This document shows positions 11,098 through 60,816 of a DNA stretch of 64,000 nucleotides, piece by piece. The notes beneath the pieces were generated by a model that saw nothing but the letters and a program-made list of their open reading frames with translations, was not told the origin of the DNA and ran no database searches. Source of the DNA: Alphaproteobacteria bacterium GM7ARS4 (GTDB lineage: Bacteria > Pseudomonadota > Alphaproteobacteria > GM7ARS4); NCBI GenBank assembly GCA_014332745.1, contig JACONL010000002.1, positions 18,371-82,370 of the forward strand, in the 5' to 3' direction. The translations under genes and the position numbers were made by a program. The first letter of the stretch is position 1; each line of letters starts with the position of its first letter.

Positions 11098-11169
11098 CTG
11101 GGGCGGCAGGATTCGAACCTGCGCATGGCGGGATCAAAACCCGCTGCCTTACCGCTTGGCTACGCCCCA
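11098..11169 (-). tRNA. tRNA-Gln (anticodon UUG), no encoded CCA
   Basis: Reverse complement reads TGGGGCGTAGCCAAGCGGTAAGGCAGCGGGTTTTGATCCCGCCATGCGCAGGTTCGAATCCTGCCGCCCCAG: 7 bp acceptor stem, GGTTCGAATCC T-loop, anticodon loop TTTTGAT. Confidence 0.85.
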
Positions 11170-19186: not shown

Positions 19187-19333
19187 ACTAATTCCTTCTT
19201 GACATATCCCCTTTTTCCCTCTACATGAGTAGCGTCATCTGTTCGTCTTGTCAACCTCTTGAGGAAGGGGGGTGATGGGGCGGTTGATGGCGGGGAGGGA
19301 GAGAGAAAATGATAACCAGGAGGTAGGAAAAAT

Positions 19334-20101
19334 ATGGCTTCTTTTGATTATAGGACACAGACGCAAGCGGGGAGGGACGTTGCGTTCAGTCAGGGTTTGC
19401 GTACCCACATGCTCCAAGTATATAACTACATGGCGTCTGGATTGTTCTTGACGGGGATTGTGGCGTGGCTGGCTTTTAATAATGCCGTTGTTGTTAATGG
19501 CGCTGGCGACATCACGGGTCTCACGTCCTTCGGGGATTCCATCTATAACAGCGGTTTGCGCTGGGTTATCATGTTTGCTCCCCTTGCCTTTATGTTGGTG
19601 CTGAGTTTTGGCGTGGAACGTTTGCGTTATAACACCCTTCAACTCATCTTCTGGGCATTCTCAGTGGCTATGGGCCTGTCTCTTGCGTCCATCTTCATGG
19701 TCTATACGGGCAATTCCATCGCCCGTGTCTTCTTCATCACAGCCGCCTCTTTTGCTGGCTTGAGCCTCTATGGCTACACCACGCAAAGAGACCTGACGGG
19801 CTTTGGCACATTCCTCATTATGGGACTCATTGGCCTGATCGTGGCGAGTATCGTCAATATCTTCTTGGCGTCCAGCATGCTCCACTTTATCATTTCCGTC
19901 GTCGGCGTTCTCGTTTTCGCCGGGCTGACAGCCTATGACACGCAGAATATCAAGCGCCTTTACCTGACCCATGCCAGTCAGGGCTCGGTAGGCGGGGAAG
20001 AGGTGAGAGGTAAGATGGTCGTGATGGGTGCTGTCAGCTTGTATCTCGACTTTATCAACCTGTTCCTCATGCTGTTACGCTTCTTTGGCGAACGACGCTA
20101 G
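19334..20101 (+). CDS. Bax inhibitor-1/YccA family membrane protein
   Basis: 255 aa, 7 TM, LQVYNYMASGLFLTGIVAW and C-terminal LYLDFINLFLMLLRFFG. Confidence 0.85.
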   Translation: MASFDYRTQTQAGRDVAFSQGLRTHMLQVYNYMASGLFLTGIVAWLAFNNAVVVNGAGDITGLTSFGDSIYNSGLRWVIMFAPLAFMLVLSFGVERLRYNTLQLIFWAFSVAMGLSLASIFMVYTGNSIARVFFITAASFAGLSLYGYTTQRDLTGFGTFLIMGLIGLIVASIVNIFLASSMLHFIISVVGVLVFAGLTAYDTQNIKRLYLTHASQGSVGGEEVRGKMVVMGAVSLYLDFINLFLMLLRFFGERR

Positions 20102-20130
20102 AGAGAAAGGGCTCACGGGCTCTTGTGAGG

Positions 20131-20218
20131 GAGGTCTCATGAGTGTACTATGGGGGGTGTACTCTGGGGGGGTACTCTCAGGGGATATACGCTCAGGGGA
20201 GGCTCTGCATGAGACCTC
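20131..20218. repeat. 11 bp inverted repeat (GAGGTCTCATG/CATGAGACCTC) enclosing about 15 nt tandem repeats with four G-tracts; hairpin/G-quadruplex-prone element in convergent intergenic region
   Basis: Direct reading of 20131-20218; G runs at 20152-57, 20166-72, 20181-84, 20196-99, more G-tracts to 20245. Confidence 0.5.
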
Positions 20219-20289
20219 GTGAAGGGGGGCTGGTGTGGGGGCGAGGGAGGCGATGTCCCCGTCTCACGCTTTCCGTGTGTCTTCTCGTG

Positions 20290-20682
20290 TCATCCTCGAA
20301 GGACGATGTCGGCTATGAACGCCATCAAGAGCGCCATAAAGCACAGAGTCAATATAAGAATCCCCGCCGCCGCCATGTCTTTAATATCCCGTATATCCTT
20401 GTGATAGGTGGGATGAACGAGATCGCATAGGCGCTCGATGGCGCTGTTGAAGCACTCAGTGACAAGCATCAGCACCGACACACCGAGCAAGGCATAGGAA
20501 AGTGTCATGGTGGGCGCTGGAGCCAAGAAAGACAGCACACTCACAAAAATAAGGGCAAGCTCTTTACGGGCAGAGGACTCCTTTTGTAGCAAGCAGAGCA
20601 GTCCCCTGAGGCTGACATAGGTGGCGTCCATCAGCCCCTTGTTCTTGGGGGGATGGCGCTGTTGTTGTGTGCTGTCCGTCAT
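20290..20682 (-). CDS. dgkA: diacylglycerol kinase
   Basis: 130 aa, TECFNSAIERLCD and KDMAAAGILI motifs. Confidence 0.85.
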   Translation of the reverse strand: MTDSTQQQRHPPKNKGLMDATYVSLRGLLCLLQKESSARKELALIFVSVLSFLAPAPTMTLSYALLGVSVLMLVTECFNSAIERLCDLVHPTYHKDIRDIKDMAAAGILILTLCFMALLMAFIADIVLRG

Positions 20683-20739
20683 ATTTTATCGTCTCTGTCT
20701 CTTGGGATATGTTTGGCGGCGAGATACGGGTGAGGCGTA

Positions 20740-24452: not shown

Positions 24453-25595
24453 CTATTCGTCATCTCTTCGTATGCCGATGGTGTATTTCATGGCGAGCCA
24501 GATGACGGATGAGCATACAACGGTGAAAGCGCCAACGCAGAGGATACCGATAATTTGTGCGGCGATTGTGGCTGTGGGGTGCGACAAGCATACGGCGAGC
24601 GTGCCAAAGATTCCTGCGAAGAGGTGAACGGGTATGGCGCCGACGACGTCGTCGATGGCGCATGTGCGCAAGACATGGCCGCCCATCATGGCAACGAGTC
24701 CCCCCATGGCGCCGACGATGAATGCTATGGGCATCGAGTCGATGGGATAGGCGGTGATGGCGACGAGTCCGCCGAGGGCGCCGTCGATGAGGGCCGTGTA
24801 TCCTTTTGCTCCTGTGGACGTTTGGACGCTGAGTTGTAGGTCATTATATCGTATGGCGAGTACGGTGATGACAGCAGTGACTCCTGCCGTTGCTGCGATG
24901 ATCGTATTGGCATAGATTGTGGCGATGGTAATGGCATCTTCTGTCGTTGAGAGTGTTATTTGTGAGCCACCGTTGAATCCGAGCCAGCCGAAACATAGGA
25001 TGAGCGTTCCGAGTGTTGCGAGTGGTTTACTGGCGATGATGAATTCTTGTTTTCCGAATCCTTTTCTTGGTCCGAGGATGATAGCCCCTGTGAGCGCTGC
25101 CCATCCGCCGACGGAGTGTACGACTGTAGAGCCTGCGAAATCGACGAATCCGATGTCATTGAGGAATCCGCCTCCCCATGACCATGACCCTTGTATTGGG
25201 TATATGATCGCCGCGAGGAACGTTGTGAAGATGAGGAATGGGAGGAGGCGCATGCGTTCTGCCACGGCGCCAGAGACGATCGATGCTGTTGTCGCGACAA
25301 AAACCATTTGAAAGAACCAGTATGCGTGGTCTGCGTATCCTTGCTGTATTTGCGTGTTGATGTCGCTAGGCTGCCAGACGCTGATCTCTTGGTGGAACAT
25401 GATGTTGTATCCTGCGAAGAGGAAAGCGATGGCGCTGATAGCAAAGAGCGCGAGGTTTTTTGTGCACTGCATGGACATGTTTGGCCTGCGTACGAGTCCC
25501 GCTTCGAGCATCGTGAACCCTGCTGCCATGAACATGACGAGCGCGCCGTGGAAGAGGAGATTAATGGAATTGAGGATAAATAATGAATCTTGCAT
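24453..25595 (-). CDS. amt: ammonium transporter (Amt family)
   Basis: 380 aa, about 11 TM, FAISAIAFLFAGYNIMF, DFAGSTVVHSVGGWAAL motifs. Confidence 0.9.
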   Translation of the reverse strand: MQDSLFILNSINLLFHGALVMFMAAGFTMLEAGLVRRPNMSMQCTKNLALFAISAIAFLFAGYNIMFHQEISVWQPSDINTQIQQGYADHAYWFFQMVFVATTASIVSGAVAERMRLLPFLIFTTFLAAIIYPIQGSWSWGGGFLNDIGFVDFAGSTVVHSVGGWAALTGAIILGPRKGFGKQEFIIASKPLATLGTLILCFGWLGFNGGSQITLSTTEDAITIATIYANTIIAATAGVTAVITVLAIRYNDLQLSVQTSTGAKGYTALIDGALGGLVAITAYPIDSMPIAFIVGAMGGLVAMMGGHVLRTCAIDDVVGAIPVHLFAGIFGTLAVCLSHPTATIAAQIIGILCVGAFTVVCSSVIWLAMKYTIGIRRDDE

Positions 25596-35151: not shown

Positions 35152-35251
35152 GGAAAGGCTTGCACGTTTGCCTTGATATGCTATGGAGTCATCGTGGTGT
35201 TGTGGGGGTGGTGTTGTGGGGTGGCGCATGGCGTGATGTGTGGTGGAGAAC

Positions 35252-43672: not shown

Positions 43673-43741
43673 CAAAAGTGAGACACGAGGGCGACAAAAC
43701 GCTTTGCGGGGCTTTTTGCGGGGCTTTTTGTGAGGTTTATG

Positions 43742-57008: not shown

Positions 57009-57662
57009 ATGAGACATGTCTTGTTGGCATGCACATTGTGCGACAGGAGTGAAGGATGGTCTGTGCATAAGCCTTTTCATCAGCTGTTGCGCCATGCCTT
57101 ATGGGCGAGTCTACAGAGCGCAAGCCCGTCGCGCCGTATCGTCATGGAAGAGGAAGAGGGGAGGGAGAGGCAGGGACACCGCCCGCCAGATTATGTTGTG
57201 GATGTCAGCATTGTTGATGATGCGGTGATTCATATGATGAATAGGCGTCACAGAGGAAGAGACATGCCAACGAACGTCCTCAGTTTTTGGGATGAACAGG
57301 CATGTGATGCATGGCACAGCATGTCATGGACCTCTCATGGGATGTCTCGGGGGACCTCTCGGGGGCTGTCTCGGGGGATGTCTCGGGGGATGTCGCAGGA
57401 TGGGCGTCATCGTCCTTCTATGGCGCCATGGTGTCTGGGGGATATTATTCTTGGGTATCAGACGGTCATGAAAGAATCGCGCGCCTTGTCTATGACGTGG
57501 TATCGTCATGCATGTCGTTTGATTATCCATGGCGGGTTACATCTTGTGGGCTATACCCATGGAACAGAAGGCGCGTATCGTCTTATGGAGCAAAAGGCAG
57601 ACAAGGCGTGGGCGCTGACCCGCGCTGCGATGAGGGACTATGATGAAAGCATGGCTGGATAG
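57009..57662 (+). CDS. ybeY: rRNA maturation RNase YbeY with Ser-Arg-Gly repeat insertion
   Basis: HGGLHLVGYTH zinc-binding motif; insertion MSRGTSRGLSRGMSRGMS encoded by 12-nt tandem repeats. Confidence 0.85.
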   Translation: MRHVLLACTLCDRSEGWSVHKPFHQLLRHALWASLQSASPSRRIVMEEEEGRERQGHRPPDYVVDVSIVDDAVIHMMNRRHRGRDMPTNVLSFWDEQACDAWHSMSWTSHGMSRGTSRGLSRGMSRGMSQDGRHRPSMAPWCLGDIILGYQTVMKESRALSMTWYRHACRLIIHGGLHLVGYTHGTEGAYRLMEQKADKAWALTRAAMRDYDESMAG

Positions 57663-58548
57663 GTTGCGTTCCTATAAGGAGAATGGGGGTGACAACAATC
57701 ATTATCAGGGCAATGGGAGCGCGTCAGATGACAACGAGCAGGGTAAGGAGTCTGGTGATTCGTCTGTCATAGAGATTGTGAGACGCCTCATGGATATGAA
57801 CGATGACCGCGTCGATGGCTTGATGGTGCCTCGTGCCGACATGGTGGCGGCGGACATCAGCACCGACCCTCGCCATATTATGAAACGCATGCGCGAACAT
57901 AAAGTCGATATCATTCCTCTCTATCGCCATAGTTTGGACCAGATCATAGGCTGTGTGCGCGCATGGGACTTGGCGCTCCTTGATAAGGGGAAGAAGACAG
58001 AGTCCTTATCGACATGCTTGGAAAAGCCTCTCTATGTCGTTGGCTCGGCGCGGGTTCTCGATGTGTTTGCCGATATGTGTCACCATGGGACGACGGCGGC
58101 GGTTGTGCTGGACGAATATGGCGGGGTGGATGGGTTTATCACCATGCATGATGTGATGATGTCGGTGTCTCAGGACATTTCCCACATGCGTGTTCACGGG
58201 CGTGGTCATGGACGTGTTTATGGACGTGTTCATGGGCTGGGCAACCATACGGGTTCTTGGCTCAAAGAGCGCGAAGGCTCGTATATTGTTGATGCCCGTT
58301 GCCATCTCCATGAGATCGAGAAGGCTGTTGGTCCTTTGCGTGTATCGGGGACGTTGACGGACGATTGCGATACGGTCGGGGGTCTTGTCTTTGCCCTTGC
58401 TGGGCGTGTTCCCGATAGGGGTGAGGTCGTCCGTAGCGATGCGGGTTGGGAATTCGATGTGTTGGATGTGGATATGCGGCGCATTCGCCGTCTTCGCCTA
58501 CGCGCTGTTCCCGCAGAAGTGCCTCATGACACGCACCCTCGTGGCTGA
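57640..58548 (+). CDS. ybeX: CBS-pair + CorC/HlyC transporter-associated domain protein (CorC/YbeX-like) with His/Gly/Arg repeat insertion
   Basis: CBS pair then CorC_HlyC C-terminus; insertion RVHGRGHGRVYGRVHG from four 12-nt tandem units. Confidence 0.85.
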   Translation: MMKAWLDRLRSYKENGGDNNHYQGNGSASDDNEQGKESGDSSVIEIVRRLMDMNDDRVDGLMVPRADMVAADISTDPRHIMKRMREHKVDIIPLYRHSLDQIIGCVRAWDLALLDKGKKTESLSTCLEKPLYVVGSARVLDVFADMCHHGTTAAVVLDEYGGVDGFITMHDVMMSVSQDISHMRVHGRGHGRVYGRVHGLGNHTGSWLKEREGSYIVDARCHLHEIEKAVGPLRVSGTLTDDCDTVGGLVFALAGRVPDRGEVVRSDAGWEFDVLDVDMRRIRRLRLRAVPAEVPHDTHPRG

Positions 58549-60275: not shown

Positions 60276-60417
60276 ATCACGCTATGGACAGCCTTTGAGA
60301 GTCCCATCCATGCTGTATTCTTGGGAGTGTTCAGAGACATGGGCGTATCCCTTCTTGACATATCATTCATTATACCTTAGGTTTACATATGCTATATCTT
60401 AGGTTTATGCATGCTGT

Positions 60418-60816
60418 ATGTTCACGATGGTATCGGTGGGGGAGGAAGAGGCGATGATAGAGAAAAAGGACGAAGCGCGCCGTGTGACGGACACGGACAG
60501 GTGGATAGGGAAGCGTTTATATGCCATGCGTCAATTTTTTGGTGTGAAGCCTGAGGATGTGGCGCGTGCTGGCGGCATTTCCAAGCAGCAGCTCCATAAG
60601 TGCGAGACAGGCAAGAATCGTATCCCAGCGGGGCGTTTAGTGGATATTGTCGTCCATGTTTTTAAGATTTCCCTTGATTTTTTCAATCCCGTCTCTCCTC
60701 TAGGCTATCGGATGCCCCGTAGGCACGAGATGGATGGTGAGAGACTGATGCGAGTCGCACAAGAGCAAAAACCATTTGGCAGAGGCGCGATAGGTGAGGG
60801 GGATAAAACATCTTGA
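60418..60816 (+). CDS. XRE-family helix-turn-helix transcriptional regulator
   Basis: LYAMRQFFGVKPEDVARAGGISKQQLHKCETGKNRIPAGRL HTH; conserved between lnt and metK in alphaproteobacteria (from memory); start may be internal 60454. Confidence 0.75.
   Translation: MFTMVSVGEEEAMIEKKDEARRVTDTDRWIGKRLYAMRQFFGVKPEDVARAGGISKQQLHKCETGKNRIPAGRLVDIVVHVFKISLDFFNPVSPLGYRMPRRHEMDGERLMRVAQEQKPFGRGAIGEGDKTS

Follow-up and report, generated by a model that had tools for sequence, protein, structure and literature searches.

What occupies the spacer between the convergent genes for a BI-1/YccA-family membrane protein and a diacylglycerol kinase (dgkA) in the bacterium GM7ARS4? The spacer contains 88 nt of G-rich repeats enclosed by two complementary arms, and an initial annotation of this DNA had proposed several descriptions for it, namely a long hairpin, a G-quadruplex (G4), a bidirectional terminator or a REP/MITE-like element. 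The source, GM7ARS4, is a 1.59-Mb MAG with 52% GC, assigned to the proposed order Ca. Methylospongiales and derived from the sponge Lamellodysidea herbacea (PMC7313196); it is a reduced sponge symbiont from a little-studied uncultured order. The stretch analysed here, referred to as the window, comprises 64 kb of this genome. Most likely, the locus is an ordinary single-copy stem-loop spacer, neither mobile nor otherwise a special element. The evidence for this view, and for the readings that compete with it, is presented below.

The features of the locus are listed in Table 1. The convergent arrangement of the two genes is supported by Pfam (Bax1-I on the + strand, DAGK_prokar on the − strand), as the initial annotation had it. 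A protein identical to the product of the BI-1 ORF is annotated as a Bax inhibitor-1/YccA family member in the GM7ARS4 MAG, and dgkA is the last gene of a pntA–pntB–dgkA string on the − strand. Among 5.8 billion proteins, the BI-1 homologue next in similarity shares 64% identity, and a search of genome contigs with the BI-1 protein returned no close relative, the best match being 62% identical. The gap of 188 nt is exceptional, and no other convergent spacer in the window is of comparable size: at each of the six remaining convergent junctions the genes overlap or are at most 11 nt apart, and none of these junctions carries a hairpin. The spacer recurs unchanged in three further assemblies (JGI, ENA and Logan) and is thus no assembly artefact. 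Compared with the window, these assemblies show ~0.1% SNPs elsewhere and zero in the spacer, and since all three represent the same population, their copies carry no evolutionary information. The SNPs common to ENA and Logan are located at 19276 and 19303, in the spacer 5′ of BI-1, and at 19723, a synonymous position in BI-1.

Table 1. Genes, repeats and predicted RNA structures at the BI-1/dgkA junction (window coordinates)
Feature	Position	Strand	Basis or description
BI-1/YccA-family membrane protein gene	19334–20101	+	Pfam Bax1-I; NCBIfam YccA weak
Spacer between the two stop codons	20102–20289		188 nt; + strand 41% G, 20% C
Small hairpin CTCAC-N8-GTGAG	20112–20129	−	Consensus scan: 5 pairs, 8-nt loop
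Inverted-repeat left arm GAGGTCTCATG	20131–20141	+	Sequence and repeat finder
Rod-like RNA hairpin, 88 nt, 34 pairs	20131–20218	+	Fold; begins 30 nt past the BI-1 stop codon
Four imperfect 14–15 nt tandem units	20143–20199	+	Pattern (G)TGTACTCT(CA)GGGG(G)
Inverted-repeat right arm CATGAGACCTC	20208–20218	+	Sequence and repeat finder
Second, weaker hairpin in the G-rich tail, then UUUCCGUGUGUCUUCU	20235–20269	+	Second inverted repeat of the repeat finder; fold
dgkA, diacylglycerol kinase	20290–20682	−	Pfam DAGK_prokar, E 1.8e-20

The two arms, 11 nt each, are complementary at 11/11 positions (100%) and separated by 66 nt, exactly as first described in both coordinates and sequences. The interval between them is built of tandem units that two tools delimit differently: TRF reports 14 nt × 2.6 copies (91% match, 20143–20178, score 58), and the other tool 15 nt × 3.3 copies (79%, 20153–20199). 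About three units of 15 nt had originally been proposed; about four of ~14 nt are counted here (n = 4), namely GTGTACTATGGGGG, GTGTACTCTGGGGG, GGTACTCTCAGGGG and ATATACGCTCAGGGG. Between the arms, G runs of 6, 7, 4 and 4 occur as reported, and two more, of 6 and 5, are located at 20224–20241. GTGAGG precedes the stem on its 5′ side and GTGAAGGGGGG follows it on the 3′ side. Exact or slightly altered copies of the motif GTCTCAYG occur in the spacer at 20110–20117, 20134–20141, 20208–20215 (inverted) and 20261–20268, the last copy falling inside the second hairpin. Two open frames run into the element. Past the dgkA stop codon the same frame remains open for ~50 codons (20139–20289, − strand), is proline-rich via the C runs and terminates at a TGA within the left arm; the paucity of stop codons in such C-rich sequence probably accounts for this open frame. 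In the JGI gene call, a 95-aa ORF at 20143–20430 on the + strand (3810–4097 of L081) starts within the element and is antisense to the 3′ part of dgkA; with this orientation and no Pfam hit, it is probably spurious as a gene.

A mobile origin is what the outline of the element first brings to mind. MITEs, for example the Correia elements of Neisseria, are 50–500 bp long, have terminal inverted repeats, reside between genes and give a transcript that forms a long hairpin. In its size, its perfect terminal inverted repeats, its intergenic site and its long RNA hairpin, the element resembles these Correia-type MITEs, and the flanking GTGAGG and GTGAAG, which agree at 5/6 positions, could correspond to an imperfect 6-bp target duplication, a weak sign noticed post hoc. 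It differs from them, however, in having no further copies and no clear target duplication, and the local tandem array inside it is atypical for a transposon relic. The sequence covered for copies comprised the 64-kb window and 17 kb of flanks, 81.3 kb altogether, or 5% of the genome. With at most 1 mismatch, no other copy of the arm was found in 64 kb; the 14-nt unit gave nothing beyond chance in the window; and blastn and nhmmer, run with the element and with the spacer, matched nothing else, whether in the window, its 81.3-kb extension or 90 other loci. The earlier remark that a single copy is visible in the window is borne out by all these searches. The arm-pair pattern matched seven metagenome contigs with unrelated interiors, in a search whose matches did not include the source locus, and gave no match in viral contigs.

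The comparison with REP elements leads to a similar result. The REP/BIME stem-loops in 3′UTRs of E. coli are likewise extragenic palindromic structures at the 3′ side of genes, and they are often found between convergent genes, where they can stabilise the upstream mRNA (bioRxiv 10.64898/2026.03.23.713779). Unlike the present element, whose 11-nt arms are separated by 66 nt and which occurs once in 81 kb, REPs are imperfect palindromes of 20–40 nt, the targets of a RAYT transposase, that occur in tens to hundreds of intergenic copies; nothing of the kind was seen in the 81.3 kb. A high-copy REP family is excluded, while the 81 kb (5% of the genome) is compatible with a low-copy family. With no further copy in this sequence or in related loci, the suggested REP/MITE resemblance finds no support, and the insertion into the spacer of an 88-bp non-autonomous MITE/REP-like element with 11-bp terminal inverted repeats is considered very unlikely.

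The G tracts invite another interpretation, in which a G4, as RNA or DNA, forms on the + strand, maybe in alternation with the hairpin, and regulates the BI-1 mRNA or impedes polymerases. The propensity proposed in the initial annotation does exist: G4Hunter scores reach 2.04 at 20149–20174 and 2.28 at 20221–20250, so that two of the twelve regions attaining 2.0 in the 64 kb fall in the spacer, and a motif with extended loops (up to 12 nt) spans 20152–20199. However, a regex search for the canonical motif (four tracts of ≥3 G, loops of 1–7 nt) returned none in 20102–20289, and the same G runs are already locked in a hairpin of −45 kcal/mol. Moreover, runs of at least five nucleotides on the + strand of the window number 91 for G versus 30 for C, and other tandem repeats also consist of G-run units. 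This abundance of G runs and of G-run repeats elsewhere suggests that the G4 signal reflects compositional background, and a functional G4 at this site is highly improbable, the least probable of the readings considered here.

Is the element, then, more than chance or genome background would produce? The answer differs between its two components. Perfect 11-nt inverted repeats with a loop of at most 100 nt number 4 in the window against 1.85 ± 1.9 in dinucleotide shuffles, and an 11-nt inverted repeat by itself is therefore not beyond chance. The tandem repeat, in contrast, exceeds chance, since TRF arrays scoring ≥58 number 5 in the window versus 0.03 per shuffle. The same holds for TRF rows as a whole (39 versus 9.7 ± 2.7 in shuffles) and for those scoring ≥50 (11 versus 0.23). 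As a general observation, tandem repeats of 9–24 nt are about four times commoner in the window than in shuffles, and many of them are G-run units; examples are located at 35194–35221, 43703–43730, 57328–57394, 58189–58235 and 60371–60419. Some + strand G-run arrays reside in other spacers (35194–35221 and 43703–43730) and some lie in frame within genes (57328–57394 and 58189–58235); through these in-gene arrays, a ybeY-like ORF encodes SRG(T/L/M)S repeats, and the ORF that follows it encodes repeats of the HGRV type. Neighbouring spacers at 20.7–24.5 kb also show G excess on the + strand, though the genes there are on the − strand. Tandem arrays throughout the genome and a G-rich + strand thus make the G tracts and the repetition of the element largely background properties of this genome.

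Such a background lends weight to a reading in which the spacer is functionless: a neutral scar, either remaining or newly formed at a place from which an EptA/CptA-like gene disappeared or where none ever stood, and shaped by slippage duplications together with the G excess of the + strand. The hairpin would then be a by-product of the repeated CUCU/GGGG wobble unit and of an inverted repeat due to chance or template switching. This explanation is a serious possibility, albeit a doubtful one. It agrees with the genome-wide frequency of tandem repeats, with the chance-level frequency of the 11-nt inverted repeat, with the G excess shared by neighbouring spacers irrespective of gene orientation and with the uniqueness of the long convergent spacer in the window, and the near-perfect units and arms suggest that the duplications are young. 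On the other hand, one would expect a reduced genome of 1.59 Mb, in which gene ends overlap, to have shed DNA of no use.

The folding of the element bears on both its possible function and its possible neutrality. As + strand RNA, the 88 nt have an MFE of −44.9 kcal/mol (23% of the ensemble, z −5.4), with 17 G–C, 10 A–U and 7 G–U pairs adding up to the 34 of the hairpin; as − strand RNA, the value drops to −24.1 kcal/mol (z −3.4), nearly all owed to the arms. The long hairpin foreseen in the initial annotation is thus real for one strand and far weaker for the other. Since shuffled sequences average −28 (+) and −14 (−) kcal/mol, this asymmetry is largely as predicted by a G-rich versus a C-rich composition, and it is strong because the structure relies on G–U pairs. 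Taken alone, the inner 66 nt have z-scores of −2.1 (+) and −0.1 (−), and most of the z-score of the hairpin stems from the 11-bp arms. Each tandem unit contains both CUCU and a run of G, which pair mutually by G–C and G–U; the inner pairing follows from this combination, so that any tandem array of such a unit would fold as RNA. Folded as DNA, the 88 nt are weakly structured on both strands. Among 8522 windows of 90 nt (both strands), the element ranks 3 in stability, with the lowest GC among the most stable loci listed. For the whole 188-nt spacer, the folding energy is −93.8 kcal/mol (z −3.8) on the + strand, against z −0.8 on the − strand, and for its downstream portion 20219–20289 it is −29.2 kcal/mol (z −1.4), which is not significant. 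In Rfam, the sole match above the gathering threshold in the whole window is a tRNA at 11098–11169, and permissive thresholds applied to 19950–20450 yielded at best 14 bits (E 0.87).

With regard to transcription termination, the stretch 20131–20218 provides the stable G+C-rich stem-loop just past a gene end that is typical of intrinsic terminators. There is neither a U tract within ~8 nt past the stem nor an A tract before it, and no T or A run of ≥4 exists on either strand of the spacer; the hairpin therefore falls outside the definition of an intrinsic terminator. Hairpins devoid of a U tract (‘I-shaped’ terminators) have been described in high-GC bacteria, e.g. mycobacteria, and their efficiency is disputed. 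The element shares with them a stable gene-end hairpin without a U trail, and the relative GM202ARS2 has one of the same kind after BI-1; it departs from them in being much longer and built of repeats. The likeness to bidirectional intrinsic terminators, known from E. coli and Zymomonas mobilis (PMC7566282), lies in a single stem-loop in a convergent spacer right after the stop codon; it ends with the missing U/A tracts, the strand asymmetry and the 34 bulged pairs, compared with about 5–14. Since both tracts are present in the experimentally mapped bidirectional terminators of Z. mobilis, itself an alphaproteobacterium (PMC7566282), the bidirectional terminator of the initial annotation cannot be upheld as a canonical intrinsic one. 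For another reduced alphaproteobacterium, Rickettsia prowazekii, most convergent transcripts were found to be without defined stop sites (PMC3027695).

A terminator consensus scan of the spacer flagged just the small hairpin at 20112–20129 on the − strand. Followed on that strand by CCCTTTCTCTCT and having a fold z of only −1.4, it is a weak candidate for a terminator-like site on the dgkA side. The surroundings of BI-1 in other genomes are more informative for the opposite side. At 79 alphaproteobacterial loci, the 100 nt past the BI-1 stop codon fold with a mean of −39.2 kcal/mol versus −31.0 within the gene; this downstream stretch is more stable by >1 sd in 56 of the 79 loci, and a U4+ run is found in 70. 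BI-1 thus normally ends its transcription unit at a terminator hairpin, and that the hairpin of GM7ARS4 is located exactly where most alphaproteobacterial BI-1 genes carry their terminator argues against a functionless scar.

On the − strand, the spacer has the composition of a Rho utilization (rut) site, i.e. ~80 nt of C-rich, G-poor and weakly structured RNA. The C/G ratio of the transcript rises to 3.09 over 78 nt, within the top 0.6% of windows, and its fold z is the −0.8 given above. This likeness to Rho-dependent terminators is one of composition and folding, in a part of the genome where the − strand tends to be rich in C throughout (median C/G 1.19, 99th percentile 3.05).

The comparison with related genomes gives the locus its evolutionary setting. 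The gene order over ~20 kb is common to the window and three relatives, L084, L085 (GM202ARS2) and L086, which form one clade; their BI-1 proteins are 83–92% identical to each other and 63–64% to that of the window. Two of them carry, within this otherwise identical gene order, a gene for a PF00884 protein of 825–841 aa between BI-1 and dgkA (L084 4798–7275, L085 4788–7313), whose EptA/CptA-like matches remain below the family cut-offs. In both, this gene, absent from the window, comes directly after dgkA with a 4-nt gap; dgkA without this likely diacylglycerol-producing partner may be in the course of being lost. The third relative, L086, has neither the PF00884 gene nor dgkA and retains a 65-nt spacer that is similarly rich in G tracts and repeats. 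These observations favour a neutral scar. They are weakened by the lack of any detectable remnant: tblastn of both relatives' proteins against 20000–20700 yielded best E-values of 0.2–2 (for a target of 700 nt), and a remnant of the EptA/CptA-like gene in the spacer was rejected. Furthermore, with three relatives from one clade and outgroups that do not have this gene order, loss and gain are not polarised, and the gene was either lost in the lineage of the window or gained in the other clade.

The 3′ hairpin of BI-1 differs among the same relatives. In GM202ARS2 the same place is taken by a perfect G/C hairpin of 11 bp that lacks a U tract (z −3.8); in L084 the hairpin is weaker or degraded, and in L086 there is none. 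Judged from these sequences, it is not maintained in the clade, which speaks against a functional stem-loop. Another junction of GM202ARS2 illustrates how spacer DNA may arise. Between its convergent pgsA-like and aldo-keto reductase (AKR) genes lies a 68-nt spacer (L095 8753–8820) in which the terminal 18 nt of the AKR gene, with its stop codon, occur four times in tandem and make up the entire spacer, whereas the corresponding junction measures 2 nt in the window and overlaps in L094. Spacer DNA in this lineage can thus arise de novo by tandem duplication.

Taking these data together, the preferred reading, held tentatively and at somewhat less than an even chance, is that of a single-copy, lineage-specific spacer built by local duplications, which serves as a 3′ stem-loop for BI-1 and is suited to Rho on the dgkA side. 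Local duplications would have produced about four tandem units of ~14 nt and an 11-bp inverted duplication. By analogy, the gene-end spacer of GM202ARS2 and the frequency of short tandem repeats far above chance suggest such an origin. We infer that the region is transcribed and that transcripts have their 3′ ends here. The transcript from the BI-1 side would fold, soon after the stop codon, into the hairpin with its G–U pairs, which is most likely a 3′ stem-loop; the element is taken as that of BI-1 because the strongest local structure is found at the usual position of the BI-1 terminator and because GM202ARS2 has a hairpin there. It may act as a pause or termination structure without a U tract and as a block to 3′ exonucleases, and would thereby limit read-through antisense to dgkA. 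The RNA from the dgkA side, C-rich, G-poor and weakly folded, resembles the sequences that Rho typically loads onto, and termination of the pntAB–dgkA transcript would then depend on Rho and not on a hairpin.

Several points count against this stem-loop reading. The other six convergent junctions of the window, short and without hairpins, indicate that the genome has no general need of one. The large share of the z-score owed to arms of chance-level length, and a strand asymmetry largely expected from base composition, also speak against it. Taken with the missing U and A tracts, the hairpin that was not kept among the relatives and the precedent of R. prowazekii, these junctions make a young functionless scar nearly as likely. 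A more elaborate variant is conceivable, in which one tandem repeat provides a strand-asymmetric, dual-mode terminator: through wobble pairing between neighbouring units, the G-rich strand would give the long hairpin, which may switch to a G4, and the C-rich strand an unstructured Rho-loading site. It is regarded as unlikely; if true, slippage during replication could suffice to generate, de novo and in a reduced genome, a barrier to transcription from both sides.

The consequences of the other readings are modest. If the hairpin marks the end of the BI-1 transcript, it is one more 3′ stem-loop without a U tract, found in the uncultured Ca. Methylospongiales, and it would show slippage duplications building such a structure, a matter of local interest for the annotation of symbiont genomes. 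If it is a neutral scar, it is a marker of gene loss and of a repeat-prone genome, and nothing more. The element opens no general question.

Two larger-scale features of the region deserve mention. The cumulative G−C minimum of the window is at 19258, with a switch of gene orientation nearby, and a replication origin was considered there. This was rejected, as the skew becomes positive again when 9 kb are added leftwards (L098); in addition, no cluster of DnaA boxes was found near the element, and the relatives show no orientation switch at this locus. What remains is a block of reversed GC skew of ~12 kb (about 0.75–12.7 kb) inside a context of G-rich + strand, and synteny with the relatives is seen only rightwards from the tRNA at 11098–11169. 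The positive skew beyond the block and the break in synteny indicate a rearranged block, probably an inversion or another rearrangement, and not an origin. Finally, an ammonium transporter gene at 24453–25595 on the − strand, between a zinc-ribbon gene and ftsE, is missing at that place in L094 and L095, and thus adds another lineage-specific difference to 20 kb that are otherwise collinear.
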